Shown here: piece after piece, positions 6,105 to 21,989 of the stretch | Position numbering within the stretch: the stretch's first letter is position 1 | Layout: every line of letters begins with the position of its first letter | Assembly (NCBI GenBank): GCA_966211485.1 | Contig: CBIHPB010000001.1 | Coordinates: 1-33,758 of the forward strand | Length of the DNA stretch: 33,758 bases | Direction: 5' to 3' | Source of the DNA: an uncultured Bdellovibrio sp. | GTDB lineage: Bacteria; Bdellovibrionota; Bdellovibrionia; Bdellovibrionales; Bdellovibrionaceae | Translations under genes and position numbers: made by a program | Notes under the pieces: generated by a model | What the model was told of the DNA's origin: nothing | What the model saw: only the letters and a program-made list of their open reading frames with translations | Database searches by the model: none

Positions 6105-6281
6105 GAATGCTCCCGGAAATCTTTGAAATCTCTTATTAAGATTTTCGGTCTTCGTTCGCTCAAACTTGATGAAATATAAAGTCTGGTGCAGATTTTGAAG
6201 AGCGACCTCGACCAATGACGAGTCCTGCTAGTTTGTGGTTTTACAGTTGCCTCAAGCATCTAAATTTACCATCATCAGCAC

Positions 6282-7463: not shown

Positions 7464-8161
7464 CTCTCAGCATTTTCCTGATGTTGGCCTTCGACGGACA
7501 TGCGGCCAGCGCACGGAAACCCGCGCAGGCAAAAGCTCCTGCAAAACCTGCAACTTCTCCTGCTCCGACATCGAATGCCGCTAAGCCATCGGCTCCAAGT
7601 CCTGCTCCGGCTGTCACAGCGGCGCCGGCTCATCCTGTGGCAGCTCGATCAATTGCGCAGAAATCTTGGGGAGTCGGCATTATGAGCTGGTCCGAGATGG
7701 TGGTTGTCACAGATAAAAATGGCAATTCGGCCGATGCTCGTACGCAGATGTACACGCCGTCTTTTCATTATGCTCTTCGCGAAAATCGCGCGACTGATGG
7801 CTTATTGTATGAAGGGTATGCTTTCTACGGTAAGGCCGATATCCAGTCGGAGTCGATTTCGCTGATCTATTTCCAAAAGCGAGTTCCAATGTACGGCTTT
7901 GGTGGTTCGGTCGGTTGGTACTGGCGCCCAGAGGCCAAGCAAGTGAACATCGGTGTGTCCGCTCCACTGCAAATGCGCCATGTGGATTGGACATCGCCAC
8001 CGGATGGCGGCGGTGTCGATAAGAAAGATCAATTCAATCTGGGTCTGATGTTGGATATGCGTTGGCGGATGACAGCGGATATTGCCATCAACCAGCGTGT
8101 GGGTACTTTCTTTGGGATCAAGGGTTCGCTTTGGATGGCGAACCTCGAGTGGACGCTTTAA
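7427..8161 (+). CDS. Predicted secreted protein with Ala/Pro-rich linker and beta-rich C-terminal domain
   Basis: Signal peptide IASFFIALSIFLMLAFDGHAAS, then an AP-rich low-complexity stretch (KAPAKPATSPAPTSNAAKPSAPSPAPAVTAAPAHP), then amphipathic beta-like segments ending in LEWTL. It overlaps the upstream gene by 37 nt. Confidence 0.5.
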   Translation: MVCTNPIASFFIALSIFLMLAFDGHAASARKPAQAKAPAKPATSPAPTSNAAKPSAPSPAPAVTAAPAHPVAARSIAQKSWGVGIMSWSEMVVVTDKNGNSADARTQMYTPSFHYALRENRATDGLLYEGYAFYGKADIQSESISLIYFQKRVPMYGFGGSVGWYWRPEAKQVNIGVSAPLQMRHVDWTSPPDGGGVDKKDQFNLGLMLDMRWRMTADIAINQRVGTFFGIKGSLWMANLEWTL

Positions 8162-8832
8162 TTATTCTGCGCCCCTTGATTAATCCAGTCTTCGATCGCC
8201 TTGACTTGCGCCGAGCTCAAAGATCCGCCCTGTGGCATTTTACCACCGGTGCGTCCGACAGTAATGGCCTGATACATGATACTGTTCGCAGCATTTCCAG
8301 GGATGACTGACTTCACGACATTGGCATAGCTATCAAACTTGTAAGTTCGGTTCGCATGGCAGGTTTTGCAGCGAGCATCCCAAACCAGTGGGAACAAGAC
8401 GCTGAACTTCGGTTCGATCGGAGTGACGCCGCCGACGGCTCCGCCATCTCCGGTTGTATCTTGTCGCAAATTTTTGATCCAGTTTTTCAAAACGTCGACT
8501 TCAGCGCCTGTGAGGCTTGGGCCTTCGGCTGGCATTCGACCTTGGCTGATTTCGATAATGATTGGTGAAAGCTCGGGTTCGCCAGGTACAACCAGGCGCG
8601 AGTAAACCAGATACTCGACGTCATTCAAATCGCCGACGTTGCCGCTCATGTTGGTGGCGCTATGGCAAGAGGCGCAGTGTTTGTTCATGATCTGAACGGC
8701 AGCGTCTTGGACTCCGGCTTGGCTATCCAAGTCCAAAGCGGCGCTGTACTCAAGCTCGGTCGGCTTACCACAGTTCTGGTAAAGCAGAAGCGGGAGCAAG
8801 GATAAGATGATCACATAGGTTGCCTTTTTCAC
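8158..8832 (-). CDS. Di-CxxCH lipoprotein, two PSCyt1-like (planctomycete cytochrome c-like) modules (module A, gene 5)
   Basis: Signal plus lipobox-like LLLYQNCG. Motifs CASCH and CKTCH are each followed by a (V/I)PG...S...MP...L...W(I) pattern. The protein ends in WINQGAQNN. Confidence 0.75.
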   Translation of the reverse strand: MKKATYVIILSLLPLLLYQNCGKPTELEYSAALDLDSQAGVQDAAVQIMNKHCASCHSATNMSGNVGDLNDVEYLVYSRLVVPGEPELSPIIIEISQGRMPAEGPSLTGAEVDVLKNWIKNLRQDTTGDGGAVGGVTPIEPKFSVLFPLVWDARCKTCHANRTYKFDSYANVVKSVIPGNAANSIMYQAITVGRTGGKMPQGGSLSSAQVKAIEDWINQGAQNN

Positions 8833-8853
8833 GTACCACTCCTAGTTCATTCA

Positions 8854-10545
8854 CTAGTTATTTTTCGCACCATCTAAAATCCACTGATTCACCAAATCGA
8901 CTTCATCACGAGGACGGAATCCATCCAGCGGCATCGACTGCAAACCTTCCAAGTTCGGAGCATCCGCATTCATACGGCGGAACATCTTGTGTGCATTTGG
9001 ATCCATATTTCCAGGCACGATGATACCGCGAGATTTCATGTCCTGATAGTCGGTCATGTCATAACCGCCCTGTCTCTGGACCGAGTTGTGACATTTCACG
9101 CAGTTCAGGCCCAAAACACCGGCTTTCGGATTCATCAGCTGAGCAAAAGTCGGAGCGGTCGCATTTGGATCTGCTGGCGGATTGTAATTTGGAAGCGAAA
9201 TCACCAGTTTCGAGTTTGCTCCAAGAACGCCACCCAATGGAGATCCCAGAGACAATCGCAAAACTTTGTCGCTGTCCGGACGCAAGTCATCTGAGAAGAT
9301 CAGATTGAAGCTTGCGGATTTTTGATAAGGCTTGAAGTTCAATGAAGTCGAAGTCGTCGAATCGACTCGGTAGTCCCAATCAAATCGGTTCAGGCCGGCA
9401 TTTCCCAGCAGGCCGACGGCCGCTTTTTCCATACCGACAGCACCGTCAAAATTTACAGGCACTGAAAGCGATTCGATATTTGCACCCGTGACATCCACCT
9501 GGATCGTGACTTTATTGGCGTAGCCCAGTTGGCTTGGCTGAATAGTCATCGACGTCACTGTGAAGTTCACAGCAGGCGGTGGAGGTGGAGCGGGCAGATT
9601 GACGATTTCAATGTTGCCGAATTGGACAGCCAATGTATCGGCTGTTCCCAATGGACCGACCGAAACCAAAGAGCCCGGAGCTAAAAGGGCTGTCGTGCCC
9701 TGGTAAACATTCATGTCCGTTTTTTTAAATGTGGTCGCATAGCCGACTGGGAATCCGTTGATGCGGAAGTTGATCCCTTTGACATGCAAACTGTTCGATC
9801 CGACTTTCAGAATTGGCAGGCTGACCAAGTAAGCGGTCTCACCGGTTGGAACTTTGTATCCCGAAACGACGACAGACAATTGCACGCCCGCCATGTTTGG
9901 AATTTCTTTTCCGGTTAATGTCGACAGAGTGGTGCTAAGATCCCAAGTCAACGTCTGACGATCGAAGACCGTTAGCGTCTGATCCATTCCATTCACACGC
10001 GTCGTCACATCTTTAGAGCCGATCTGCGGAATTGTTTGCGCGGTGGTTTCATAGGTTGGAGAGAAAGATTCTTCCGCTGTTGTCGCACCGGTACCGCCCT
10101 CTCCACAGGTGGCTTTGGCTTTCTGGAAGCTTTGCCATTGCAGACGCAGACCCTGGATGATCTCCAGGTTTTGCGAGCCTGTGTAAGGTGGGTTGTGACC
10201 GTTGTTGACGGCGTATTGAGAGATTTTATCGTAGCCCAACATCTGGAACCCGGCATATGCATTCACCTTGTCAGGTGACGCGAATGTTCCTTTGCCGGGA
10301 CCGTTGACGTGACAGTTCATACAAGTCGAAGCCAAGAATTGATGGTAACCCCGGTCGAAAACGTCGATCTCTTCTTCCTTACAGACATCGATGGCATTGT
10401 AAGTATCAACGCCGATGCTGGAAAGGCTGCCGCTCATGGAATCCGCTGTCTTTCCTTTCCCGCAATTGTTGTAGGAAAGCAAAAGGACGGATCCCATGGC
10501 TGAGAGAAGAGCTATCCGGATGTATTTACGAGTATTCACTTTCAT
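8854..10545 (-). CDS. Di-CxxCH lipoprotein with central beta-sandwich and Calx-beta-like region and PSCyt1-like C-terminus (module A, gene 4)
   Basis: Signal plus LLSYNNCG. CMNCH lies near the N-terminus and CVKCH near the C-terminus, and the protein ends in WILDGAKNN. There is a PPPPP linker. The segment ASFNLIFSDDLRPDSDKVLRLSLGSPLGGVLGANSKLVISL resembles a Calx-beta strand pattern. It is a paralog of 20796-21989. Confidence 0.75.
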   Translation of the reverse strand: MKVNTRKYIRIALLSAMGSVLLLSYNNCGKGKTADSMSGSLSSIGVDTYNAIDVCKEEEIDVFDRGYHQFLASTCMNCHVNGPGKGTFASPDKVNAYAGFQMLGYDKISQYAVNNGHNPPYTGSQNLEIIQGLRLQWQSFQKAKATCGEGGTGATTAEESFSPTYETTAQTIPQIGSKDVTTRVNGMDQTLTVFDRQTLTWDLSTTLSTLTGKEIPNMAGVQLSVVVSGYKVPTGETAYLVSLPILKVGSNSLHVKGINFRINGFPVGYATTFKKTDMNVYQGTTALLAPGSLVSVGPLGTADTLAVQFGNIEIVNLPAPPPPPAVNFTVTSMTIQPSQLGYANKVTIQVDVTGANIESLSVPVNFDGAVGMEKAAVGLLGNAGLNRFDWDYRVDSTTSTSLNFKPYQKSASFNLIFSDDLRPDSDKVLRLSLGSPLGGVLGANSKLVISLPNYNPPADPNATAPTFAQLMNPKAGVLGLNCVKCHNSVQRQGGYDMTDYQDMKSRGIIVPGNMDPNAHKMFRRMNADAPNLEGLQSMPLDGFRPRDEVDLVNQWILDGAKNN

Positions 10546-10580
10546 CCCCCAAAACGACGTTCCAAAACCAGGGTCTTCAA

Positions 10581-12068
10581 CTACGCAATCTTCTTCATCG
10601 CATCGATCTCAGATGGATTCAGAGTTCGTGGCAAGGCCTTGTCGATCTCCAGCAATTTGCCGTTGAAAGACAACCAGTTCACGAAGGCTGCTGCAACCGC
10701 GCGGTCTGCTGACGAGATCAGCGGAGAAGCCGCACCCTGAGCATTGTTCATGTAACCAATCTGAGTTCCTTGAGCTTGCAATGCGCCCGATGGATTGAAC
10801 GCCAGGAAGTAGTAGCTTCCGGTATTACCAGCATCGTTAGTCCATGGTGCTCCTGGAATATCAGATTCAGGCGAGGCCGCCGATCCGTCCGATGTGATGA
10901 AGATGAAAACTTTCTTACCCATGGCCGCAGCGGTCTGCAGGATCTGGCCGATGATCACGCCAGTTCCGTTGTCGAAGCCGTCTCCACGAGTGCGCGAACC
11001 ATCGTGATAGTCAGCTCCACCGCGATTGATGTTTCCAGAGCCTGCGTTTCCGTTCAAGGCATTGAAAACGATCGTCGCCATCTGGTAAGCCGCCGAGCTT
11101 GTCGACGTATTGGCCTGCAGGTTCCAAACACGCGCCACATCCGCGTTTGCACGAGGATCAGTCGTGTTGCTGCCTGGATTTGCGATCAGGTTTGTATTGT
11201 CAGCAGTTCGGCAAGTGATGATGTTTTCCAAATCAGCACCGCTATTCTGCGCGACATAACGCTTGGCTTGGTGAACGCTGAGATTTTGAATCGTCTCAAA
11301 CATTTTACCGGCACGGTTTGCCGCCACCAGTGGTGACAAGCTTCCGGCCACACCCAAAGCGCCGGTTAAACTTTCATAAGAAGAAATAATCAGCGGAGCC
11401 GGTGGATTGATGAAAGCCGCCTTGGCTCCCAATCCAGTCGGCGTGTTCGCTGTTCCCATATTGCCGACCAGTTTTCCATTCAGGCCCATAGCTCGGGTGA
11501 TCCCGGACATATCCGAGTTGTTGTTCGAGCTGTCATCCTGCGTTTGCACAGGAATGCCGTGGAAAGTGGTTTTTGCCAAAGTGTCGGCCATCGCCGATGT
11601 GCGAAGTCCGGCCAGCAAGGTGGAAGTTCCAAAGAATGCCACGTTGTTTGAAAACTCGCGGTCGATTTGGAAGGATCCGGTCTTGCCCTGTCCCAGTTTT
11701 GCATATGAAGACAAAAGATCTCCGCCTTCGTTCAATGGAATATAGTGGGATGAAAAGTTACATCCGCCCTGGCAATTCAGGGTGATCACTGGAATCCAGT
11801 CGCCGCCGCCTGAAACCTGGCACTGCAAAGCGGCCTGTGCGGTTTCTGGAATCATCATCTGAAAAATGTTCTGGCTCATCAAAGCGCCAGAGAATGAGAT
11901 CACTCCGGTTGACAGAAAGTCGCGGCGGCTCAAAGCTTTCAGGCCGTGCGATTTCTGGTGTTCGTTCAGCAGCTCTTGATTCTTGGCTGCCGTATCCATC
12001 ACTTCATCTTTGGTGAGTGTCGTGTCCACACCCGCCATGATATTTTTTGTCTTGTTATCTTGTCCCAT
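10581..12068 (-). CDS. Tat-signal periplasmic protein with conserved GGADYHDGSRTRGD motif, function unknown (module A, gene 3)
   Basis: The ATG at 12068 has a GGGGG 7 nt upstream. The twin-arginine motif is SRRDFLSTG. It is a clear paralog of 19348-20784, sharing NPPAPLI, GGxDYHDGSRT and ITSDG. The motif order is loosely reminiscent of DUF1501-type sulfatase-like proteins. Confidence 0.75.
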   Translation of the reverse strand: MGQDNKTKNIMAGVDTTLTKDEVMDTAAKNQELLNEHQKSHGLKALSRRDFLSTGVISFSGALMSQNIFQMMIPETAQAALQCQVSGGGDWIPVITLNCQGGCNFSSHYIPLNEGGDLLSSYAKLGQGKTGSFQIDREFSNNVAFFGTSTLLAGLRTSAMADTLAKTTFHGIPVQTQDDSSNNNSDMSGITRAMGLNGKLVGNMGTANTPTGLGAKAAFINPPAPLIISSYESLTGALGVAGSLSPLVAANRAGKMFETIQNLSVHQAKRYVAQNSGADLENIITCRTADNTNLIANPGSNTTDPRANADVARVWNLQANTSTSSAAYQMATIVFNALNGNAGSGNINRGGADYHDGSRTRGDGFDNGTGVIIGQILQTAAAMGKKVFIFITSDGSAASPESDIPGAPWTNDAGNTGSYYFLAFNPSGALQAQGTQIGYMNNAQGAASPLISSADRAVAAAFVNWLSFNGKLLEIDKALPRTLNPSEIDAMKKIA

Positions 12069-12088
12069 TTCAAACCCCCAAAATTGAA

Positions 12089-12712
12089 TTAAAGAATCAG
12101 CGTATCCAGCGCACTGAGCATCGATGTGCACATGAACAGCATCGAGTCGTGTGCCGTGTTCGAAAACGCCGATTGAATTCCGCCCATCACGATGTCCGAT
12201 TCTGTTGGGTCTTCATCACGAGACCAGCAAGAACGGGCCAAGCGTCTCATCGCATCTTGCATTGTGCCGTCTGCTGGCAAAGACATTCCTGCCCAGTCGA
12301 CGCCAATGAACATACGAGGAGCGGTTTTTTCATTTTCGATCAAGTCTTTGCAGACCTCGCCAGCCAGAGAAGTCAAAGCCATCAACGCCGGAGCTGTATA
12401 AGTGCTCACCGCGCCGGTCTCTGACATCGTTCCGACTTTCGAAGAGTACATTGCCAATGTTCGGTCTGAAGGCAGACCAGAACCTGTGCAAGATGAAAAG
12501 TGATCCAAGGCCGCTTTTCCGTAGACCAAGGAAACAGTCGAAGTATTTGGTTTGATTCCCGGATCGTCGTCCGAGCTACCAGAGTTCTGTGCACTGTTGC
12601 CAGATTCATCGCCAATCACTGTGAATTTTCCGCACCCTTGACCCAGACCAACGATGATCACAGCTCCGGTGACCAAGATGGTTGAGATTCGTGCAATCAG
12701 TTGCTTTCTCAC
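12089..12712 (-). CDS. Small lipoprotein, function unknown (module A, gene 2)
   Basis: The GTG start overlaps the upstream stop (GTGA at 12709-12712) and is preceded by GGGGGAGGAAAA. The lipobox-like signal is GLGQGCG. The C-terminal MLFMCTSMLSALD is shared with the paralog at 18657-19325. Confidence 0.65.
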   Translation of the reverse strand: MRKQLIARISTILVTGAVIIVGLGQGCGKFTVIGDESGNSAQNSGSSDDDPGIKPNTSTVSLVYGKAALDHFSSCTGSGLPSDRTLAMYSSKVGTMSETGAVSTYTAPALMALTSLAGEVCKDLIENEKTAPRMFIGVDWAGMSLPADGTMQDAMRRLARSCWSRDEDPTESDIVMGGIQSAFSNTAHDSMLFMCTSMLSALDTLIL

Positions 12713-14967
12713 TTTTCCTCCCCCAAACAGTTTGGTGTGATCACCAAACGCTTAAATAAATAATCAAGCTTATAACCATTCGATTCAAATTCACTGGCCG
12801 CTGTCTTCATCAAAGCTTCGTCGAAGCTTTGTGGCTCACGCTTACAGACCGACGCGAATACACGCTTGGCCATACAGCGAGAGAACTGCTCGGCATTTCC
12901 CACCATTGTTCCAAATTCTTTCACGCCTTTACCGGACGTTGGACCGCGCCAGCCAAAGTAACCTTGTGCCCAAGGCTCGACGGCAGCGTTACTGAACAAG
13001 TTGTCCGTGATCACGCGGCCGCCTGGGAAGATGTGCTCGTTGTGGTTCATTTTGTCGGCTACGAACGAAACGTTTCCAAGGCTTGGCAGCTGAGTCAGAG
13101 CTGGGTCTGTTGCCTTCAAGCCGGCTGACATACCCATTTGTGTTCCTTCATTCATGATTCCAGCATTCAGGCGAGGAACCACGAAAGAGTTCTTCACAAA
13201 GTTATTGCTGAATGTGAAGTAGGCAAAGGCACTTCGCAATGGATCCATGCGCGAGTGGCAGGCACGGCAGCTGGTTGTGAACTTGGTGTGCGAACCGCTT
13301 GGGAAGCGATCCACGTCGCGTCCGATCGGAGCATCACTGCCGTTTGAATCCGACCACTTGTCGATTGGCGTGCACAGGAATTCACGGAAAGTGAATTCAA
13401 TTGGACGGCGGTTGGTTCCCGCAATCGCATGTGCGCCCATGAAAGCTCGAGACGTGATCAGTCCCGCTGGATCTGGATGCTCGACAGCTTTCGAGCCGTC
13501 ATAGATCATTTGTTTTGCTGGAACGAGAACTTTTGCCAGGTCGAAACCGCCGGCCTGCAAGGCTTCATAGTGACGGTTCGATGTCAGAATATCACGTACG
13601 ATATTCGACGGGACAGCGGCCTTCTTTGGATCGGCCATGTAAGTGATATCGCTGTTCACCAGAACGCGTGCATCCAAACCATCGCGTGTAACGCCAATCA
13701 TGGTCGCGACAAAGTCATTCAAAGTCGTGCTGATGACTTCTTCACGAGTCGACATGCGAGCCGCCATATCGCGAACCGAAATATTCAAGAAGTTTGGATC
13801 TTTGGTTGCCAGTCCTGCCGCTTCAAATGTGCGACCTTGATCAATCAGGTCCGCCATTTGTCCAATGATGGGGTTGTCAACCACGGTCTTCACGCCGGTG
13901 ATACGGTTGTAGATCGTCTGAGCGCGAGTCACGCTTGGTGTGATCTTGCGGCTGAGATCAATTGGATAAATCGTTGGAGGTGTGATGCGTGGAGCACCGG
14001 CACCCAGGATTTCCTGATCGGTCAAAGCGCGGCAGTACACAGCCACCATATAGACTTTGCCCATCCAAGGCCAGTGACGGCTGCGTTTACCTGGGCCTTC
14101 GCCACCTTGAGTTGGCTTGCCGAAATCCTGATCAGCACTGGCTTCGTTACCGATGGCCAGGCGGATATCCAATTTGCGAGACAGTGAACCGGCGCTGTCA
14201 TCTGGGGTGTCGTAGGTCACGTTTGTTCCAGTGACATGCCAGTTTGAAAAGTTACCGCTAAATCCACGAGTCACAACGAAAGGACCTGTGTCGTTTCCGT
14301 TGTCGTCGCTATTGTACAGACGAGCAGCACCCCCAGCCGTCTTCACGAAGTAGACGTGCTGTTTCTTTTGCAGCAAGAATGTTTCGTTTGGCGCCAGCAA
14401 GTAATCGACCAGGTCACCGTTGTAGTTGGTGCCAGTCGAGTTGTTTGATGTGCGAGTTGTCGCCTTGTATGTATCGCCCATGTTGTAGGCTTGGTAGATA
14501 CCGAAGTTGTGAAATTCTTTGAAATAAGTGTCTGCCAAAGAGACCATGCGCAGAGACTGTTTGAAGTATCCGTTCATCATGTTGTTGTCGTCTTCAGCGT
14601 TCACCAGTTTTTCGGCCGGCGTACGGCTTTCAAGCCACATTTCAACCGTCATTTCGTTTGAAGCTTTGCAGGCATTGGTGATTTTGTCGGCCGAAGTCAC
14701 CGAGCGAATCAGATTTGGCTCTGAGATTTCCAAGTGATCGGCGCGAGAGTAAAACAATGCGTTGGTGCGAACGATTTGCAAATTCAATGGATTTGGTGCC
14801 AGGTCCTTGATTGTCCAAGTTGCGGGATCGATGTTGTCTTGGCTGAAGACATACAAAGCGACCGCAGAGTCCCGAGTCGGACCATTTCCGGCAGAGTCCA
14901 GCGCCCAAGTCACTGATGACCCGGCGACTGACAAGAAGAATGTAAATAAAACTTTTCCCGTTTTCAT
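12709..14967 (-). CDS. Secreted LamG-like + PSD/DUF1588-like CxxCH protein (module A, gene 1)
   Basis: Has a signal peptide. The N-terminal ~340 aa end in WMGKVYMVAVYCRALTDQEIL, typical of LamG/concanavalin-like domains. The C-terminal ~410 aa are collinear with 17421-18656 (PDPAGLITSRAFMGAHA, EFTFREFLC, CRACHSRMDPLRSAF). A GAGGGG SD lies before the ATG at 14967. Confidence 0.75.
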   Translation of the reverse strand: MKTGKVLFTFFLSVAGSSVTWALDSAGNGPTRDSAVALYVFSQDNIDPATWTIKDLAPNPLNLQIVRTNALFYSRADHLEISEPNLIRSVTSADKITNACKASNEMTVEMWLESRTPAEKLVNAEDDNNMMNGYFKQSLRMVSLADTYFKEFHNFGIYQAYNMGDTYKATTRTSNNSTGTNYNGDLVDYLLAPNETFLLQKKQHVYFVKTAGGAARLYNSDDNGNDTGPFVVTRGFSGNFSNWHVTGTNVTYDTPDDSAGSLSRKLDIRLAIGNEASADQDFGKPTQGGEGPGKRSRHWPWMGKVYMVAVYCRALTDQEILGAGAPRITPPTIYPIDLSRKITPSVTRAQTIYNRITGVKTVVDNPIIGQMADLIDQGRTFEAAGLATKDPNFLNISVRDMAARMSTREEVISTTLNDFVATMIGVTRDGLDARVLVNSDITYMADPKKAAVPSNIVRDILTSNRHYEALQAGGFDLAKVLVPAKQMIYDGSKAVEHPDPAGLITSRAFMGAHAIAGTNRRPIEFTFREFLCTPIDKWSDSNGSDAPIGRDVDRFPSGSHTKFTTSCRACHSRMDPLRSAFAYFTFSNNFVKNSFVVPRLNAGIMNEGTQMGMSAGLKATDPALTQLPSLGNVSFVADKMNHNEHIFPGGRVITDNLFSNAAVEPWAQGYFGWRGPTSGKGVKEFGTMVGNAEQFSRCMAKRVFASVCKREPQSFDEALMKTAASEFESNGYKLDYLFKRLVITPNCLGEEK

Positions 14968-15042
14968 TTTCCCCTCATTTACCCTTCAACGAACCGCAAA
15001 CCCCAAAACGTAATTCTGTACAAACTTCGTTACACCCTGTCC

Positions 15043-16896
15043 TTAGGGGATAACTGTCGACAAGAAGCTGGCAGAGCCCGATGTATTGTTCGGCTCGGCA
15101 TTCAACTTCGCGCCAACGACGATATCAGTACCTGAGAAACCAACACTGGAACCAAATTGATCGTTATCCGCACCAGTCGTGCTGGAAATACGGCGGACAA
15201 ATTTGCAAACGCCATCGCTTGTTGCAAAGTGGTCAACCGCACCACCGCGTGTTCGCAACTCTGGAGCACCGATCAAAACACCAGCCGAGCCGATGGCGAC
15301 AGATGTACCGAAGCGACCTTCACCATTTGAAACATCCATCAAAGTCTGAAGCGCCGCCGAACCTGTTGGATTCGTGATCAGCAGTGCGAGACCTGCTTTG
15401 CGTGCACCATTCAAATAACCTGGAGCACCCACCAGAATTTTTCCACCGTAGATCGCAACTGACGAGCCCAGCTCGGCACCCATTGCGATTGTGAGCGTGA
15501 GGTCTTTGCCAGTTTGATCTTTCACAGCCAAGCCAGTTTTGTTGGCATTGGCACGCAGTGGATTGGTCATGACTTCATCCCACGATGCGGATTTCGAGTA
15601 GATCAACAATTCACCAGTCATTGTGTCGCGGTACAAAGTCGAAGCCGGAGCACCGACTGCCAACAAGCCACCTTCGATGGCAACCGCAGCACCGAAGTAA
15701 GAGTTGTTTGGCAATGGACTGGCGATATGAGCCGTCTGAGCAAAGCTTGAGCTATCAAAGATATAGACCGCACCTTTTGAGCTGGATTCAGCTGGAGCAC
15801 CGACCGCGATTTGACTGCCGTCGACCGCAACTGCGCGACCGAATTTGCTTCCAGCGACTGTGCCTGAAAGCTTACGGGCCATGGCAAAAGTTCCGCCACT
15901 GGCTTTGAAGACATAGGCCGCACCGGTGTTCGAGCTATTGAACTCGCTTCCAACCACCAAAGTGTCACCCTTTAAAGCCACTGAAGCCGGGCTGTCGTTG
16001 GCAGCTCCGCGGTCAGCCACGATGGCCGTGTCATCTGTTCGCAAGATTTGCGAGCGAGTCCATTTGTTATCGCCGCCTTTTTTGTAAATATAAATCGCTC
16101 CGATCAACTGAGCCGTGTTGCCGTCACCGTCATCACCCGGAGCGACAACAGCCGCTGTCGATCCGTCGATTGCAACCGCTGCACCCATTTGGTCGAAGGC
16201 ATCCAAAGATTCTGTTGTGACTTGCTCTGGATAGCAGTTGTTTTTGAAAGTGACCGTGATGATTTGCTCGGTGCTGCGCTTGTTCGTGTCAGCCGTGCTT
16301 TGAACAAAAACACGGTACTTGGCCGTGCCTTCAAAGCACTGTTTGTCCGTATCATTATCATTCGGACGGAATGAAATCGAGATGGATGTGCCCGGACTTG
16401 CATTGGCTGGTGTGCGAGTGCAAGTAATATCATTATTCACAACCGCTGTACGAACGCCGGCGCCGTTTACCGCTGTCACAGTCATTGAAGCATCAGTCAC
16501 ACGTTGGCAGGACACTGTTGCGCCTTGCTGACACTGAGAAGCTGCGTTTGATTTTGTGTATGTGAAAGAAACCGTATCAGATGCCTTACGTCCGCCGTTG
16601 TCGCCACGGCCTGAAAGGGCTGTCAACGAAGTACCGCTTAATGCCGTTGCTTCAGGAACACCAACATCAGAAGCCAAACATGGAATTGTATTTAATGTCG
16701 TAGAGGTCGTTGACGTGGTTGGCGTATTTGGATCTTCAGGAATGTCGGTGCCGCTGCCATCGCCTTGGGAAGAAGAGCCCATCGAAATTGAGCCTTCAAC
16801 AGTCTGGAAATTCTGCGCACAGTTTTGGAATGGCAACAGCAGTAACAAGGCTGTAGCTAACCACAACAAACTACGGCGTTTGTTCATCTTCTTCAT
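15043..16896 (-). CDS. Lipoprotein with seven FG-GAP-like repeats (integrin-alpha-type beta-propeller)
   Basis: The ATG at 16896 has a GAGGGG upstream. Signal plus LLLPFQNCA. There is a Thr/Ser-rich linker and a Cys-containing domain. Then come seven repeats of the type FG.AVA..G..(I/L)(A/V)VGAP....G(A)(V/I)Y(I/V)F. I trimmed the ORF-track start at 17070. The gene lies 75 bp upstream of module A gene 1 on the same strand. Confidence 0.8.
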   Translation of the reverse strand: MKKMNKRRSLLWLATALLLLLPFQNCAQNFQTVEGSISMGSSSQGDGSGTDIPEDPNTPTTSTTSTTLNTIPCLASDVGVPEATALSGTSLTALSGRGDNGGRKASDTVSFTYTKSNAASQCQQGATVSCQRVTDASMTVTAVNGAGVRTAVVNNDITCTRTPANASPGTSISISFRPNDNDTDKQCFEGTAKYRVFVQSTADTNKRSTEQIITVTFKNNCYPEQVTTESLDAFDQMGAAVAIDGSTAAVVAPGDDGDGNTAQLIGAIYIYKKGGDNKWTRSQILRTDDTAIVADRGAANDSPASVALKGDTLVVGSEFNSSNTGAAYVFKASGGTFAMARKLSGTVAGSKFGRAVAVDGSQIAVGAPAESSSKGAVYIFDSSSFAQTAHIASPLPNNSYFGAAVAIEGGLLAVGAPASTLYRDTMTGELLIYSKSASWDEVMTNPLRANANKTGLAVKDQTGKDLTLTIAMGAELGSSVAIYGGKILVGAPGYLNGARKAGLALLITNPTGSAALQTLMDVSNGEGRFGTSVAIGSAGVLIGAPELRTRGGAVDHFATSDGVCKFVRRISSTTGADNDQFGSSVGFSGTDIVVGAKLNAEPNNTSGSASFLSTVIP

Positions 16897-17420
16897 ATTC
16901 CCCTCGACAACTCGACCTATCGGAAAGTCCGTAGATTTAGTTAAGCCCAATTTCCCAAAAAGAAACAAAAATATCGGAAACAGTTCGAAGGTAGGAGGTG
17001 CAAAGGCAGGACCTGATCGGTCACTACTTGTTCGACAGCGGCTTCGGGTCTGTATTCGAGAGCGACTCATTTTCGACTCGAGATGAGACGTCTCAATACT
17101 GGAACGGTGTCTAGCGAAGCTTCGTTGACCAGAGTGTCTACAAAATCGGTTGTCTGATTCGCTGGCATTCAGACAGCTGGCAAGTTTTCATTCAGGCTTG
17201 TTTCGGTCTGGAAACTTCTACGGTTTTTCTGTGGAAGTCCGATAACTTATCAAAGTTCGACAGTGGTGTTTTGTGATTTTGCATTCGGTTTGAATGCTGA
17301 CAGCTGGGCGACAATATAGAGAGTGATTTTTATTTGGTTGTCCTGAGCTCGAATTTACCCGCAAACAATGCTGTGGTCTTTGCTTTGCTTTTGTTCAACG
17401 TTGGGTGAAAGGGGGGTGAA
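16897..17420. promoter_or_regulatory. Divergent intergenic control region between the two paralogous operons
   Basis: This 524-bp non-coding gap lies between divergent starts at 16896 (-) and 17421 (+). It contains the perfect palindrome GAGACGTCTC (17085-17094), two copies of GACAGCTGG (17172-17180 and 17299-17307), and the hairpin GCATTC-N5-GAATGC (17281-17297). A weak sigma70-like TTGAAT (17290-17295) is followed 17-19 nt later by AATATAGA. No element has been validated. Confidence 0.45.
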
Positions 17421-18656
17421 ATGCGAAAAGCAGCATGGATTTCTATTTTGTTCGTGCAAGTTTTAGGCATTTCCGCCTTCGCTCAACTGGATCCAGCTTC
17501 GGTGACGGCCAAAAAACTTCTCGAAAGAATCTCCAGCACCAAAGTTCCTGCCGATCACGCGCTGATTGCTCCGATGGCCGCCCGAATTCGCGCTGGAGAT
17601 TATGTTGGCGCCGCTGAAATTGCGCAAACGCATCCGAATTTCCTGAGTGTCACGGTCAAACAGATGGCATTGAAGATGTCGACTCGGGAAGAAACCATCC
17701 GCCTGAGCCTCAATGATTTCGCAGCTTCATTTATTGGCGTCACCCGCGATGAAACGGATGCCAGAGAATTGCTGACGGGAAACTTCTATTATATGGCGGA
17801 CGCGACCCGCTTGCCGGCCGGTGTGACTGTTCGAAGCGATCTGGCCAATGATATTTTGAAATCGAACAATCACTATCAGGATCTGGAAAGTCCACTGATA
17901 GATATAGGCTCGGTTTTAAAACGCGTCAGTGGTCAGCAAATGGTCGACGGAGCCAACGCAGTCGTCGCCAATCCAGATCCAGCCGGTGTGATCACGTCGC
18001 GGTCCTTTATGGGTGCGCATGCAACGGCTGGAACTTCGCGCCGTCCAGTTGAATTCACATTCCGAGAATTTATGTGTGTGCCAATTGAAGACTGGGCTGA
18101 CACCAAGGCGTCTGATATCCGTGTCGGTCAGGATATTGACCGTTTCCCAGGAAACGATCACTTGAAATATCAGACGACCTGCAAGGGCTGTCACTCGCAA
18201 ATGGACAGTCTGCGAGGTGCTTTCGCCAAATGGGATTTCACCGGGAATCGCATCATCAACGGGAAGGTTTCAATCAAGGCGGGTGACCTGAATGCGACGA
18301 CGGGACTTTCTGGAAAAGTCTCTCGCAACAATTCGGTTTTTTCAGGTGGCTACGTCACTACGGATGATTCATTTTTCAATAATGCGACTGGTTTTGCCAA
18401 TGCCGAAACTTTTGGCTGGCGTGGACCGGCCAGTGGAAATGGCGTCAAGGATCTTGGCACCATGGTGGCGAACTCGAAACGCTTTAGCATCTGCATGGTC
18501 AAGCGGGCTTATGATGCAATTTGCCGCTCGAACATGGTGCCCAAGCAAAACATGATTTTTCTTAGCCACCAGGCCAATAAGTTCGAACAAAATGGCTACA
18601 ATTTGAAACGACTTTTTAAAGAGCTGGCGGTCACCCAGCAGTGTATGGGGCAGTAA
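17421..18656 (+). CDS. Secreted PSD/DUF1588-like CxxCH protein (module B, gene 1)
   Basis: SD GAAAGGGGGG before the ATG, followed by a signal peptide. CKGCH at 18180-18194 sits in the context TTCKGCHSQMDSLRGAF, which resembles the CxxCHxxxDPxG core of planctomycete PSD-type domains. It is a paralog of the C-terminal part of 12709-14967. Confidence 0.75.
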   Translation: MRKAAWISILFVQVLGISAFAQLDPASVTAKKLLERISSTKVPADHALIAPMAARIRAGDYVGAAEIAQTHPNFLSVTVKQMALKMSTREETIRLSLNDFAASFIGVTRDETDARELLTGNFYYMADATRLPAGVTVRSDLANDILKSNNHYQDLESPLIDIGSVLKRVSGQQMVDGANAVVANPDPAGVITSRSFMGAHATAGTSRRPVEFTFREFMCVPIEDWADTKASDIRVGQDIDRFPGNDHLKYQTTCKGCHSQMDSLRGAFAKWDFTGNRIINGKVSIKAGDLNATTGLSGKVSRNNSVFSGGYVTTDDSFFNNATGFANAETFGWRGPASGNGVKDLGTMVANSKRFSICMVKRAYDAICRSNMVPKQNMIFLSHQANKFEQNGYNLKRLFKELAVTQQCMGQ

Positions 18657-19325
18657 ATGCGATTTGAAAAAAAGGGCAACACGCTTGTTTGGCTTTCACT
18701 GGCTTCGCTGGTGGGGGTTGCCATGTCCTTTCAAAGTTGCGGCCAGACTCCGTTTGGCGCCATGGGTTTTGAAGTGAAAGAACTGGAAAGCAGTGGCGGT
18801 GAAGCGGATACAGGCTACGTCACGGTTCCCTATGCTTTGCTGTCAGCCGATCAGGTTTTCAAAAGTATGGCGTCAGTCACAGGTGTGACTCCGGACGCAA
18901 CGATCACCAATGAGTTCAATTCTGTCTCCAATGTTTTGGGATCTGGATACGATCTGCGCCTGATGACTTCGCCGATGATGATCGGCAGTGCGAATCTGGC
19001 CAGCCGTTTCTGTAACGCCACAATAGCCGGTCCAATGACAAAGGGCCGTTTCTATCCAGGAATCGATTTCAGCAAAGGCGTTGAAAGCGTAGGCGGAGTT
19101 CCGCTTCTGACAGATGAAGCCTTTCAAGCCAGTGTCGAGCAGCTGAGCCAAGCATTCTGGGGCCGCATGCCAAGCTCGGAAGAATCTCAGATTCTCTACG
19201 AGGCGAAAGAAGAATTTTTAATGGAGTACTCGCCGATGGAAAAGCAAAGCGCGGATTCGTCGACGAAATTGATGTTGTTCACGTGCACAGCGATGTTGGT
19301 CAGTTTCGACGCCATGTCGTTTTGA
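18657..19325 (+). CDS. Small lipoprotein, function unknown (module B, gene 2)
   Basis: Starts immediately after the upstream stop (TAAATG). Signal plus MSFQSCG. The C-terminal LMLFTCTAMLVSFD matches the paralog at 12089-12712. Confidence 0.65.
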   Translation: MRFEKKGNTLVWLSLASLVGVAMSFQSCGQTPFGAMGFEVKELESSGGEADTGYVTVPYALLSADQVFKSMASVTGVTPDATITNEFNSVSNVLGSGYDLRLMTSPMMIGSANLASRFCNATIAGPMTKGRFYPGIDFSKGVESVGGVPLLTDEAFQASVEQLSQAFWGRMPSSEESQILYEAKEEFLMEYSPMEKQSADSSTKLMLFTCTAMLVSFDAMSF

Positions 19326-19347
19326 TGGGTTTGTGCAGGGGGAAAAG

Positions 19348-20784
19348 ATGGGGAAGAACAAAAAAGACATCCCAATGTGGGCTCGGACCGGTCATGCGAA
19401 ACCGGTTTCTCGACGTGAATTTCTGGCGTCGGGTCTGATTCCATTTTCCGCTTCTATGCTGATGCCGAACTGGACAAAGCTTCTGTTGCCAGAGCTGGTG
19501 GCAAATGCGGCCGAGCCCATTTGCTCGACAGGTGCTTCAGATTTGATTCCATTTGTAACTTTGAATCTGGCAGGAGGAGCCGGTCTCGCTGGAAATTATG
19601 TGGCATTGGACCAAGGTGGTCAGATGCTTCCGTCCTATAGTTTGGTGGGTCTTGGCAAAGCTCCAACAGTTGAAAATGAATTTGGCAAAGTCGGATTTGC
19701 CGGAATGAACAACGGAGTTCTGACCAGTAAATTTCTGCAGGGAATTCGCGAGCGAGCACCGACAGCCATTTCCAAGACAGCTTTTGTGGCATTGTGCGTG
19801 CGATCGCGCGATGACTCGAGCGAAAATCGATTTGCTGCCGACGGTATGGTGGCCAAAGCTGGCCTTCAAGGTGCGCTTTTGCCAAACCTGGGACAAAGGC
19901 AAAATACTTTGGCTGGAATTGGGCAGGAGCCTTCCACTGTCAATCCGCCGACACCATTGATTGTCAATAATTTCTCGGCTCTGACATCCTCTCTGGGATA
20001 CGCGGGCGCCATTGGCAGTGGCTTGAAGACGGCGCAAAAAGAATCGCTGGCTCGTCTGATCAGCCGCCTGTCTGAATCTCAATCTCGAAAGATTGCCAGC
20101 ATTCAATCAGGTGCTGAGATTAAAACTTTGCTTGATTGCGCCGGGATTAAAAATGAAGAGCTGGTCAAAGCTGGAACTAATGTTGTCGATCCACGTGCTG
20201 ATTCTTCAGCGGGGACTCAGCTCAGTACCATCTGGGGAATCAATGCCGGTACGAATGGAAATGACTCGAACTTGATTTTCGGCTCGATGGTTTACAACGC
20301 TTTGAGAGGCACAGCCGGGTCTGTTGCTTTGGAAATCGGTGGATACGATTATCACGATGGATCTCGCACAACGGGTGATAACAAGGATCTGGATGCGGGC
20401 CGGGCGGCGGGACGAATTTTGGAATCGGCAGCGGTCTTAAATAAACCGGTCTTTTTGTACATCACATCAGACGGTGCAACCTCATCGGTGAATTCGGATG
20501 CGCCGGGTGCCGCATGGACCAGCGATCGCGGAACAGCGGGACTGGCATTTATGCTTTACTTCAATCCATCGGGACGTCCGGAAACTTCGGGCTCTCAGAT
20601 CGGATGGTTTACCGACGGACAAACGGCGGATGAAACTTTCATCACCGGCAACAGTCCCGAGGCAGCGGCAGCGGCCGTCTTTGCCAACTATCTGGTGGCA
20701 AATAAGCGTCTGGATCTTTATGCCGGTATTGCGGGGCGAACGTTCGCAGGGGATCAGCTCGATAAAGTATTGAAATTCACGTAA
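19348..20784 (+). CDS. Tat-signal periplasmic protein with conserved GGYDYHDGSRTTGD motif, function unknown (module B, gene 3)
   Basis: The ATG at 19348 is preceded by AGGGGGA. The twin-arginine motif SRREFLASG has its RR codons at 19411-19416. It is a paralog of 10581-12068. Confidence 0.75.
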   Translation: MGKNKKDIPMWARTGHAKPVSRREFLASGLIPFSASMLMPNWTKLLLPELVANAAEPICSTGASDLIPFVTLNLAGGAGLAGNYVALDQGGQMLPSYSLVGLGKAPTVENEFGKVGFAGMNNGVLTSKFLQGIRERAPTAISKTAFVALCVRSRDDSSENRFAADGMVAKAGLQGALLPNLGQRQNTLAGIGQEPSTVNPPTPLIVNNFSALTSSLGYAGAIGSGLKTAQKESLARLISRLSESQSRKIASIQSGAEIKTLLDCAGIKNEELVKAGTNVVDPRADSSAGTQLSTIWGINAGTNGNDSNLIFGSMVYNALRGTAGSVALEIGGYDYHDGSRTTGDNKDLDAGRAAGRILESAAVLNKPVFLYITSDGATSSVNSDAPGAAWTSDRGTAGLAFMLYFNPSGRPETSGSQIGWFTDGQTADETFITGNSPEAAAAAVFANYLVANKRLDLYAGIAGRTFAGDQLDKVLKFT

Positions 20785-20795
20785 GGGGATTTTGG

Positions 20796-21989
20796 GTGTT
20801 TGGGGATATCAAAGATAGTCTGAAAAACGGAATCTCATTGGTTGTCATCATGACCAGTGCGGTGATCATTTTCCAGAACTGCGGCCGGGTTGGCTTTCAG
20901 GCTCAGAAGGGCACGGCCTTTGGCTCGGTCGGAATTTCTTCCGAAGCCTGCGAAAGCATTTTGAAACAGACTTACTCGCAAACTTATTTTCCACTGCTGA
21001 AAGTCAACTGCAACGCCTGCCATTCGGCCGGCCACGGCAGCACGGATCTAGAGACATCCTTCCGCGGATTTCAATCCAAGGGTGTGACCATGATCAACTA
21101 CAAGGCCACCAATCCGCATGGCGATAACGGAGTGAATCTCACATCCGAATTGGCCGAGATCAAAGAGGCCTGGGATGAAGGTCAAAGCAAGTACATGGAG
21201 TGCGTGTCTTCCGCTGATGATTCGGGCGGGACGGCCGGTGGCAAATTGAAAGTGATCGGAAAACCTGTACCTGATTTGGCAGTCACCGGAGTGCAAGCTC
21301 AGCAAGGCGCTTGGAAAACGGTCGAATGGGATTTGGAAACCGAAGTTCCAAAATCTCGTCAGGGACAGTTCCGGGCTTTCTTGAAAATTGAGGCTCGCCT
21401 GTCTTTAAATGGAATGAATATTGTCGGAATTGATTTCCGAAATCCAATGATGAAATTGAAATCGGCGGGCAATGGCCAATACATGAAAGCCAATGGCCTG
21501 AATATTTTGATCGACGACCAGATGATGTCCAATGTCACCATGTACACTGGCGTGTCGGCGACAATCACAGATGCGACCTATGTAAATCTGGCGCCGGGAT
21601 CGGGCGTGGCGCTGGCTTATTTACCGGATGTGAATGTGTCGATGCCAGTCTCGCTTGAAATCACAGATCTTCAATACACCAGCAACGATGGAACCACGAC
21701 AACGACCATGCCAAATGGTGGTGGCGGCGATAAAATTTCCTGGTCACAGCTGACAGGAGCCGATACGGCGGTGAATGTTTTCCGTCGACGATGTTACACC
21801 TGCCATCAAGGTCTGTCGGCGCAAAAAGGACTGGATCTTTCCGTCTATGCAACAGCCTCTGGCAAAGCGACCGAAATTCTGGGACGCGTGAATAATGCCG
21901 GAAGCCCCATGCCTCCGGGCGGATTGCTGTCGCAGCCCGAACGCGATCTCATTGGCCGCTGGGTCAACAACGGTGCTCCACAAAATTAG
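20796..21989 (+). CDS. Di-CxxCH lipoprotein with central beta-sandwich and PSCyt1-like C-terminus (module B, gene 4)
   Basis: The GTG at 20796 is preceded by AAGGGGA. Signal plus IIFQNCG. CNACH at 21009-21023 and CYTCH at 21792-21806. The protein ends in WVNNGAPQN. It is a paralog of 8854-10545 without the Calx-beta-like segment. Confidence 0.75.
   Translation: MFGDIKDSLKNGISLVVIMTSAVIIFQNCGRVGFQAQKGTAFGSVGISSEACESILKQTYSQTYFPLLKVNCNACHSAGHGSTDLETSFRGFQSKGVTMINYKATNPHGDNGVNLTSELAEIKEAWDEGQSKYMECVSSADDSGGTAGGKLKVIGKPVPDLAVTGVQAQQGAWKTVEWDLETEVPKSRQGQFRAFLKIEARLSLNGMNIVGIDFRNPMMKLKSAGNGQYMKANGLNILIDDQMMSNVTMYTGVSATITDATYVNLAPGSGVALAYLPDVNVSMPVSLEITDLQYTSNDGTTTTTMPNGGGGDKISWSQLTGADTAVNVFRRRCYTCHQGLSAQKGLDLSVYATASGKATEILGRVNNAGSPMPPGGLLSQPERDLIGRWVNNGAPQN

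Follow-up and report, generated by a model that had tools for sequence, protein, structure and literature searches.

Organization of the locus

The window analyzed here is a complete contig of 33,758 bp from an uncultured Bdellovibrio sp., in which two operons (A and B) leave a common intergenic region on opposite strands and code for the same four families of exported proteins, referred to here as genes 1 to 4, in the same order. Operon A is read on the minus strand (16896 to 8158) and operon B on the plus strand (17421 to 21989), and beside the end of operon A lies bb1, which codes for a putative cytochrome-porin related to Cyc2.

Operon A opens with the gene of a 617-amino acid FG-GAP repeat lipoprotein (15043-16896), followed by gene 1A (12709-14967), which codes for a 752-amino acid Sec-exported protein with a single CxxCH motif, in which a LamG-like N-terminal extension precedes a PSCyt3/PSD2-like core. 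Next come gene 2A (12089-12712), for a 207-amino acid lipoprotein with two family-invariant cysteines; gene 3A (10581-12068), for a protein of no Pfam family that is exported through twin-arginine translocation (Tat) and may have a fold like that of the alkaline phosphatase superfamily; and gene 4A (8854-10545), for a 563-amino acid lipoprotein with two CxxCH motifs, made of an N-terminal putative heme motif, a beta-rich middle part and a C-terminal PSCyt1-type domain. The operon is closed by cyt5 (8158-8832), a putative diheme c-type cytochrome lipoprotein with two class-I/PSCyt1-type domains. Operon B is composed of gene 1B (17421-18656), whose 411-amino acid Sec-exported product has one CxxCH and only the PSCyt3/PSD2-like core; gene 2B (18657-19325), a paralogue of gene 2A coding for a 222-amino acid lipoprotein; gene 3B (19348-20784), for a Tat-exported protein whose model weakly matches the same fold; and gene 4B (20796-21989), for a 397-amino acid lipoprotein that contains two CxxCH motifs and ends in a cytochrome c domain. 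On the plus strand, bb1 (6282-7463) codes for a signal peptide, an N-terminal CMTCH (its only CxxCH) and about 350 beta-rich residues, as expected of a fused monoheme cytochrome-porin, and bb2 (7427-8161) for a small protein with an Ala/Pro-rich linker, putatively of the outer membrane and the probable partner of bb1.

The first-pass annotation of this DNA had given the same coordinates and strands for the eight open reading frames (ORFs) of both four-gene sets and had pointed out the tight spacing of the genes (a GTGA overlap of 4 nt at 12709-12712, 0 nt at 18656/18657 and 11-35 nt in the remaining gaps), and both descriptions hold. It had started operon A at gene 1, although the FG-GAP gene is in fact the first of this operon and the extra diheme gene (8158-8832) the last. 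Its count of nine CxxCH motifs is also correct: one in each gene 1, two in each gene 4, two in cyt5 and one in bb1. These nine motifs fall within the 5,003 amino acids encoded by the genes between 6282 and 21989, versus none in the 5,467 amino acids of the other 15 genes of the window. They are conserved among orthologues, in a number characteristic of each family, and two is the maximum for any single protein, both in the window and among all its relatives.

The export signals (Sec, lipobox and Tat) place all products of the cassette outside the cytoplasm. The lipid anchoring proposed earlier for genes 2 and 4 is borne out by F(Q/N)NC-type lipoboxes, present also in cyt5 and the FG-GAP protein, which read GQGC in gene 2A, FQSC in gene 2B, SYNNC in gene 4A, FQNC in gene 4B, LYQNC in cyt5 and PFQNC in the FG-GAP protein; the Tat signal proposed for gene 3 is found as SRRDFL (3A) and SRREFL (3B).

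The divergent intergenic region (16897-17420) contains two promoter-like sites of the sigma-28/FliA type. The consensus of the FliA promoters of attack-phase Bdellovibrio is TTAAG-N16-CCGATA (PMC3627812). One site, TTAAC-N16-CCGATA (16944-16918, minus strand), lies 21 nt before the ATG of the FG-GAP gene, with a GAGGGG ribosome-binding site between them, and the other, CTACG-N16-CCGATA (17218-17244, plus strand), lies about 180 nt before gene 1B. In related loci, FliA-type sites were found in 12 of 86 regions upstream of the cassette, versus 2.4% expected from a whole-locus background of mostly coding DNA (binomial p about 9e-7), an enrichment that is indicative only. A generic scan for sigma-70 promoters and terminators revealed no enrichment.

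Conservation and origin of the two operon types

Pairwise BLASTP of the paralogues confirmed that the two operons, on diverging strands, hold the same four families in identical order. Identity is 43% between genes 1A and 1B (418 columns, E = 3e-114), with 1B aligning to residues 341-752 of 1A; 24% between the two genes 2 (E = 2e-10); 36% between the two genes 3 (480 columns, E = 1e-92); and 22% between the two genes 4 (E = 4e-8), or 26% in their C-terminal cytochrome domain (E = 3e-6). The strings that had first drawn attention to the duplication are all seen in these alignments: PDPAG(L/V)ITSR(A/S)FMGAHA and EFTFREF(L/M)C in gene 1, and MLF(M/T)CT(S/A)ML, GG(A/Y)DYHDGSRT, ITSDG and W(I/V)..GA..N in the remaining families.

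A scan of one genome per GTDB species yielded 283 relatives of gene 3, and 80 loci were kept. All of them belong to Bdellovibrionota, including complete genomes of cultured Bdellovibrio sp. HCB strains, except two contigs of metagenome-assembled genomes (MAGs). These two contigs (L036 and L061) are labelled Bacillota and Streptomyces griseus, and share 42-50% identity with the window in their cassette proteins; the labels are probably binning errors in public assemblies. Wherever one of the 80 loci was long enough, tblastn showed the four genes on a single strand in the order 1-2-3-4, so that the fixed order extends far beyond the locus in which it was first noticed. Even at 27-32% identity (L081 and L082), the order is kept, gene 1 still has its single CxxCH and gene 3 its Tat signal. 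When the ORFs flanking the cassette were clustered, only the four families appeared in 75-79 of the 80 loci (79 for the gene 2 family, with 2A- and 2B-type members taken together), followed by cyt5 (23 loci), the FG-GAP protein (18) and bb1 (14).

Two operon types can be distinguished, each conserved on its own and also occurring separately in other genomes. Type A is composed of the FG-GAP gene, a long gene 1 with the N-terminal extension, gene 2, gene 3, a long gene 4 and cyt5, whereas type B is composed of a short gene 1, gene 2, gene 3 and a short gene 4. Among type A operons (L069), orthologues share 61-78% identity and among type B operons (L001) 41-68%, and gene 3B reaches 84% in the closest metagenome relative; compared with the 22-43% between A and B paralogues, these values indicate that the split between the two types is ancient. 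A recent tandem or inverted duplication is ruled out by the low identity of the paralogues together with the separate occurrence of the types in other genomes. The locus had been described as a mirror-image duplication, and two paralogous operons do stand back to back in it, but they are old operon types brought side by side and not the product of a recent duplication. This back-to-back layout was seen only in the window and in one close relative, and is absent from L069 and L001. No match to genes 1B and 3B was found by tblastn against plasmids.

Genes 1 and 3 have hundreds of relatives each, all annotated as "hypothetical protein", and those with named hosts come from Bdellovibrio, Pseudobdellovibrionaceae or Bdellovibrionales. 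No component of the cassette maps to a well-characterized pathway, and the proposal of a conserved, uncharacterized extracytoplasmic system of several proteins is upheld.

Cytochrome-like proteins of the cassette

Gene 1 proteins combine a Sec signal with one conserved CxxCH. In gene 1A, PSD2 (PF07624) passes its cut-off by a narrow margin (25.9 versus 25.8 bits, E = 8e-6, residues 679-743), and gene 1B of the window has no PSD2 match. PSCyt3 (PF07627, gathering score of 27 bits) stays below threshold in both, with 17.0 bits at the CKGCH of gene 1B (residues 248-276) and 13.9 bits at the CRACH of gene 1A, and its matches cover only positions 65-93 of the 98 of the model. Among 20 relatives of the 1A type, PSD2 was detected in 18, PSCyt3 in eight and Laminin_G_3 in seven (best 1.8e-5), and among 32 of the 1B type PSCyt3 was detected in 22 and PSD2 in 17; the PSD2 counts were taken at E values up to 1, the best being 2.9e-7, and the PSCyt3 matches of the relatives are again below threshold. 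The recurrence of both matches across relatives makes chance unlikely. PSD3, PSD4 and PSD5 were found neither in genes 1A and 1B nor in their 52 relatives. The earlier description of gene 1 as PSD/DUF1588-like is thus supported by PSD2 and PSCyt3 signals, and gene 1 is likely a remote homologue of the planctomycete PSCyt3/PSD2 proteins, although formal membership in PSCyt3 fails. The AlphaFold2 model of gene 1B has a mean predicted local distance difference test (pLDDT) of 83.8 and a predicted template modeling score (pTM) of 0.85, with low confidence in the CxxCH loop, and a Foldseek search of this model against the PDB returned no match (best E = 2.8). On this model, the PSCyt3/PSD2-type core of gene 1B appears to be a fold without a solved representative.

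Both cyt5 and gene 4 contain genuine cytochrome c domains. Of the two, cyt5 exceeds the cut-offs of Cytochrome_CBB3 (44.7 bits), PSCyt1 (PF07635, 28.9 bits) and Cytochrom_C. Its motifs are CASCH and CKTCH, its second domain follows the pattern CxxCH...MP...WI..GA, and in most type-A loci its gene comes after gene 4A. With PSCyt1, gene 4A reaches 21.8 bits, 0.2 bits short of the gathering score of 22, and contains CMNCH at residue 75 and CVKCH at residue 482, the latter followed by MP and WILDGA. Gene 4B reaches 16.1 bits with PSCyt1 and 26.1 bits with Cytochrome_CBB3 (cut-off of 27), and contains CNACH at residue 72 and CYTCH at residue 333, followed by SPMPPGG and WVNNGA. The PSCyt likeness suggested earlier for the domains of the locus is supported in gene 4 and cyt5 (8158-8832) by PSCyt1 signals. 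Two CxxCH motifs are present in 35 of 40 orthologues of gene 4A and in 40 of 43 of gene 4B, and the class-I His/Met pattern CxxCH...MP...W(I/V)xxGA is shared by 4A, 4B and cyt5. Heme binding by the CxxCH proteins is inferred.

In several Bdellovibrionales genomes (L035, L037, L043, L047, L051, L062, L064 and L068), gene 4 is present in two or three tandem copies after gene 3, indicating that the putative diheme lipoprotein is the amplified part of the cassette. The FG-GAP protein matches FG-GAP_2 in four stretches (E = 8e-36) and its gene was found upstream of gene 1A in 18 loci. Sequence and profile searches of the PDB with gene 1, gene 3, gene 4A, cyt5 and bb1 gave nothing meaningful.

The small lipoprotein and the Tat-exported protein

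The gene 2 family has two invariant cysteines in addition to that of the lipobox and matches no Pfam family, except that one of 33 relatives matches PSD5/DUF1595 at 3e-4, a hint that gene 2 could have been split off from a PSCyt3/PSD-type protein.

Gene 3 belongs to a large family (955 clusters at 50% identity, E up to 1e-3), in which the twin-arginine motif was found in 62 of 69 type-B-like and eight of 10 type-A-like relatives, with the RR pair invariant in distant members. No Pfam match was obtained with 31 members (E up to 10) or with 10 distant members (E up to 0.1), nor any NCBIfam match for gene 3, and an exhaustive hidden Markov model (HMM) search together with a profile search with distant members, aimed at remote relatives with a Pfam annotation, returned only unannotated proteins without Pfam domains. 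The first-pass annotation had likened the locus to the planctomycete pairs of PSCyt/PSD genes with DUF1501 (PF07394) or DUF1552 (PF07586) genes. The signals in gene 1, gene 4 and cyt5 agree with this likeness, but gene 3 was recognizable as neither a DUF1501 nor a DUF1552 protein, with no match to either model among 31 members at E values up to 10.

For a direct comparison, DUF1501 references were retrieved from public contigs with the motif GGWDTHxNNF and confirmed by Pfam (E = 1e-98 to 1e-109). Genuine DUF1501 proteins aligned to gene 3 by hhalign with a probability of 1.2%, and gene 3 as DUF1501 was rejected. A broader gene 3 profile in greedy alignment reached 29% (E = 5.9e-4), colinear and with GGYDYH on GGWDTH and TSDG on SEFGR, but this score depends on the aligned Tat signals, because without them it falls to 2.6% (P = 0.018, controls 0.2-0.7). 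The DUF1501 motif GGMSHxDTFDPK (GGMSHLDTFDPK) is absent from gene 3, which has GGAGLAGNYV, and GRDH has no counterpart in it. Canonical PSCyt3/DUF1552 references were also sought with the pattern CxxCHxxxDPxGF and an HxxSHH filter, which gave chance matches only, and viral contigs scanned with the gene 1A alignment contained no PSCyt3-type references. As a side observation, 77 "viral" contigs of IMG/VR (L083-L159) carry genuine DUF1501 genes (Pfam E about 1e-100), which suggests that cellular DNA contaminates the viral collection or that large phages carry these genes as auxiliary ones.

The AlphaFold2 model of gene 3B (pLDDT of 76.7, pTM of 0.76) has two disordered segments, and all 50 of the matches listed by Foldseek against the PDB belong to the alkaline phosphatase superfamily, including steroid sulfatase, Escherichia coli alkaline phosphatase, iPGM, phosphopentomutase and MCR/EptC. 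These matches are weak (E of at least 1.3e-4, probability of at most 0.87, TM of 0.18-0.37). The invariant residues D156, N160, D334-x-H336 and D375 are located directly after predicted beta-strands, so that the conserved Asp-x-His and Asp are placed like the metal ligands of this superfamily. In contrast to it, gene 3 has no sequence match to solved members, low TM values, a large helical insertion (residues 205-320) and no obvious Ser/Thr/Cys nucleophile motif after the first strand.

A Cyc2-like cytochrome-porin linked to the cassette

The product of bb1 is 393 amino acids long, with a hydrophobic leader, the CMTCH motif at residue 41 (about 12 residues into the mature protein), a beta-amphipathic bias and 12% aromatic residues, and exactly one CxxCH is present in 13 of 14 orthologues. 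It has no Pfam, NCBIfam or PDB sequence match. A beta-barrel gene with the ninth CxxCH had been noticed beside the operons and is indeed there; what had escaped recognition was its likeness to Cyc2, a fused cytochrome-porin that oxidizes Fe(II) (PMC8406198). Cyc2 proteins are recognized by being at least 365 amino acids long, with a signal peptide and only one CXXCH, which is N-terminal, and by PXFAR[Q/K][T/Y] upstream of the heme motif and PXL four residues downstream (PMC8406198). The signal peptide, the single N-terminal CXXCH and the length are all found in bb1.

A reference set of more than 120 canonical Cyc2-like genes was collected with the pattern PxFARQ[TY]xxxCxxCH, of which 82 were full-length with one CxxCH each. 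The bb1 family aligned by hhalign with these 82 proteins with a probability of 94.8% (E = 5.5e-8), and still with 74% (E = 2.8e-5), colinear over the whole length, when signal peptides were removed; the controls for the mature proteins gave 0.22 (reversed), 0.43 with gene 3 and 0.005 with gene 1B, another protein with a CxxCH. When the Cyc2 HMM was run against 2,174 ORFs of Bdellovibrionota loci, bb1 orthologues were 12 of the top 15 matches, with weak E values (7e-5 to 0.08). In the alignment bb1 is in register with the heme site of Cyc2, and the orthologues of bb1 share AYP(D/E)F(I/V)(S/G)(Y/H)GYxxCxTCH(Y/F)NGxGNGPL(N/T)DYGR, in which A-x-P-x-F and its spacing of seven residues from the first Cys correspond to Cyc2, as do the later LNDYGR, where Cyc2 has LTxFGR after the heme site, and the length of about 390 amino acids. 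The PL of the bb1 orthologues comes only after an insertion of 3-4 residues, and the copy in the window has GQL. On these alignments, bb1 is a distant Cyc2-like relative and not a member by the published motif rule. A further single-CxxCH, barrel-like protein of 391 amino acids with a C-terminal Phe is encoded near a type-B cassette in locus L004 (14351-15526); it is the top match of the Cyc2 HMM, and at its N-terminus it reads TPDFAVRYNQISCTSCH, a sequence that stands between those of bb1 and canonical Cyc2.

In Bdellovibrio sp. HCB290 and related HCB strains, genes 1-2-3-4-bb1-bb2 are adjacent and co-directional. The bb2 gene, which overlaps the end of bb1, is homologous to the gene of a 198-amino acid outer-membrane-protein-like product that follows bb1 in HCB290 (BLASTP E = 1e-7); its product has no Pfam match and shows the strongest beta-amphipathic bias among the proteins tested.

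Possible functions of the cassette

The likeness of bb1 to Cyc2 shifts the likely mechanism toward electron transfer across the outer membrane. The reading that we favor, while rating it somewhat short of an even chance, is that the cassette forms an electron-transfer chain that spans the cell envelope and serves gene 3, a putative Tat-exported metalloprotein. In such a chain, the Cyc2-like porin would exchange electrons with a small, redox-active solute outside the cell, for which Fe(II) is the precedent given by Cyc2; the lipid-anchored mono- and diheme cytochromes would relay these electrons across the periplasm; the heme of gene 1 would couple the cytochromes to the gene 3 metalloprotein; and the gene 2 lipoprotein may tether gene 3 at the membrane. 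Type A operons would add ligand-binding modules (LamG and FG-GAP), and the FliA-type sites may indicate that the cassette is expressed in the free-swimming attack phase. Precedents for a scheme of this kind are Cyc2 and the cytochrome domain of Cbp2D, described below.

Several observations weigh against an electron-transfer chain of this kind. The residues that define Cyc2, FAR[Q/K][T/Y] and PXL at +4, are missing from bb1. Only 14 of the 80 loci have bb1 within 8 kb of the cassette (with the further Cyc2-like ORF near the cassette in L004), and in the window bb1 forms a separate, convergent transcription unit. None of 120 metagenome loci had cassette relatives beside canonical Cyc2 genes. With at most two hemes per protein, the cassette contains no long heme wire; the fold matches obtained for gene 3 are weak (best E = 1.3e-4, TM of at most 0.37); and the promoter evidence consists of consensus matches, assessed on a background of mostly coding DNA. 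To our knowledge, the enzymes of the alkaline phosphatase superfamily are hydrolases and transferases rather than redox enzymes, which leaves the need for cytochromes unexplained.

If gene 3 is indeed of that fold, the cassette could instead serve hydrolytic nutrient scavenging of the PSCyt/DUF1501 type known from the Planctomycetes-Verrucomicrobia-Chlamydiae (PVC) group, an explanation that we regard as rather unlikely. Gene 3 would then be a phospho- or sulfo-ester hydrolase, gene 1 (with LamG in type A) and the FG-GAP protein would bind a polymer of prey or environmental origin, the CxxCH motifs would be structural, sensory or occasionally redox-active, and the barrel would be a mere neighbor. 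The fold matches of gene 3, weak as they are, to sulfatases, alkaline phosphatases, phosphomutases and phosphoethanolamine transferases agree with this, and so do its conserved Asp and His at strand ends, the presence of LamG-like and FG-GAP modules, and the adjacency of bb1 in a minority of loci only. The PSCyt genes of the PVC group likewise adjoin sulfatases and carry carbohydrate-binding modules (PMC5615132, PMC3542564). Against hydrolysis, however, every CxxCH is strictly conserved over deep divergence, and the His/Met type of the PSCyt1 signature argues for functional hemes; the N-terminal nucleophile/metal motif seen in DUF1501 is missing from gene 3, and in the cultured strains bb1-bb2 come straight after gene 4 on the same strand. 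A version that joins both sides, in which the cassette and the Cyc2-like porin would form a redox machine of the predator reaching from the outer membrane to the periplasm, with an alkaline phosphatase-fold gene 3 carrying out chemistry coupled to heme cytochromes and not plain hydrolysis, seems unlikely to us as a whole.

The relationship of bb1 to Cyc2 also allows a role in the redox chemistry of iron or another metal, either for acquisition or for energy, and this we consider decidedly unlikely. Here bb1 would oxidize Fe(II), cyt5, gene 4 and gene 1 would feed the respiratory chain, and genes 2 and 3 would handle the metal product by binding, chaperoning or taking it up, with no separate catalysis. 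In Cyc2 pathways, periplasmic mono- or diheme cytochromes c accompany the porin (rus operon, cyc2-cyc1), the cytochromes found here are of this small mono- or diheme type, and Tat export of gene 3 fits a protein loaded with metal. On the other hand, the Cyc2 signature is degenerate in bb1, most cassette loci have no bb1 nearby, and genes 2 and 3 resemble no known iron-uptake proteins; moreover, Bdellovibrio-like organisms are obligate or facultative predators, and we know of no report of lithotrophy among them.

Finally, it is very improbable that the CxxCH motifs bind metal or form disulfides instead of carrying heme, in a non-redox structural or adhesion complex of the envelope with FG-GAP and LamG as adhesins: these are typical adhesin modules, the CxxCH loop of gene 1 was predicted at low confidence and a literature search found no experimental heme evidence for PSCyt3-type domains, but cyt5 passes the curated thresholds of Cytochrome_CBB3, PSCyt1 and Cytochrom_C, the MP motifs of the distal-ligand type are conserved, and bb1 aligns in register with the heme site of Cyc2, a proven heme binder.

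Neighboring genes

No flanking gene is conserved with the cassette among those for GGDEF proteins and response regulators, a cation efflux protein, a thioredoxin-reductase-like protein, OppD/F-like ATPases, a methyltransferase, a TonB-like protein and PP2C. The OppF/OppD-like pair of ABC ATPase genes (21993-23707, minus strand) faces the end of operon B in convergent orientation, and neither permease nor binding-protein genes adjoin the pair. The closest relative contig has the same pair near the end of operon B, with one gene for a 403-amino acid protein in between, and an SBP_bac_5 gene was seen near the distant cassette in L081; this neighborhood may be coincidental synteny. Between a response-regulator gene and bb1, a predicted lipoprotein of 433 amino acids (4914-6215, minus strand) contains a run of 11 threonines within TTTETTTTTTTTTTT; it has no Pfam or NCBIfam match and is not conserved beside the cassette in other loci. 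Antisense ORFs of 176-362 amino acids are found at 6291-7379 and 19537-20106 (minus strand) and at 10770-11336, 13429-14187 and 16556-17086 (plus strand). Such antisense ORFs form clusters across related loci because the sense genes are conserved, and they are therefore shadow ORFs and not genes.

Comparison with known systems

In Planctomycetota and Verrucomicrobiota, the PSCyt/PSD families with their Tat-exported partners rank among the largest gene families that lack an explanation; their description dates from 2004 and the genome of Rhodopirellula baltica, and papers of 2012 and 2017 still gave them no function. The locus is a compact relative from another phylum, with its domains in separate genes and a fixed composition of four genes, two of which (genes 2 and 3) belong to families outside Pfam. 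What is new here is the identification of bb1 as Cyc2-like and its physical linkage to the cassette. Cultured Bdellovibrio strains with complete genomes carry the cassette, making the hypothesis directly testable. Should the Cyc2 link be functional, it would represent an unsuspected route of extracellular electron exchange in predatory bacteria, and a redox machine of the kind outlined above, if real, could reveal in a tractable Bdellovibrio the function of the PSCyt/PSD plus DUF1501/DUF1552 families.

Compared with the Cyc2 systems of Acidithiobacillus, Zetaproteobacteria and Gallionellaceae, bb1 shares the beta-rich, porin-like body and the small periplasmic cytochromes c encoded alongside, but its hosts are predators that are not known to oxidize iron, and it is linked to a cassette of PSCyt/PSD-like proteins and a Tat-exported protein. 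The MtrCAB and PioAB/MtoAB systems resemble the locus in that an outer-membrane barrel is encoded together with lipoprotein or periplasmic c-type cytochromes. Conduits of the MtrCAB/PioAB type are decaheme wires inside barrels of 26 strands (PMC8406198), and a porin-multiheme conduit is ruled out here by the heme count of at most two CxxCH per protein. Another point of comparison is Cbp2D of Cellvibrio japonicus, a secreted protein with DUF1587, further X domains and an X183 c-type cytochrome domain that reduces an extracytoplasmic enzyme (PMC8981238). Both systems combine a small extracytoplasmic c-type cytochrome domain, a "planctomycete-specific" domain and substrate-binding modules, but Cbp2D has its domains in a single protein, which serves a copper lytic polysaccharide monooxygenase (LPMO), and the likeness is one of logic and not a demonstrated homology; neither LPMO nor DUF1587 was detected in the proteins of the window.

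The link to the PVC modules is drawn from the PSD2/PSCyt3 signals of gene 1, the PSCyt1 signals of gene 4 and cyt5, and a shared logic. Both bring together CxxCH proteins and a twin-arginine partner in tight clusters, at times with Laminin_G_3 or beta-propeller additions, and multi-gene versions are known. The function of the PVC modules is stated as unknown (PMC3542564, PMC5615132), and those with DUF1501 and PSCyt have been interpreted as machinery for electron transport that is targeted to the membrane and includes a Tat-exported enzyme (PMC3542564). The PVC modules comprise PSCyt3-PSD2..5 with DUF1552, or PSCyt1/PSCyt2/PSD1 with DUF1501; here the domains are split over four polypeptides, mostly lipoproteins; only the C-terminal PSCyt3/PSD2 part is recognizable, mostly below cut-off, the lineage is Bdellovibrionota and a Cyc2-like porin is attached. 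The cassette is therefore best filed as the Bdellovibrionota form of the PSCyt/PSD-plus-Tat-partner modules, with its domains split and lipid-anchored.

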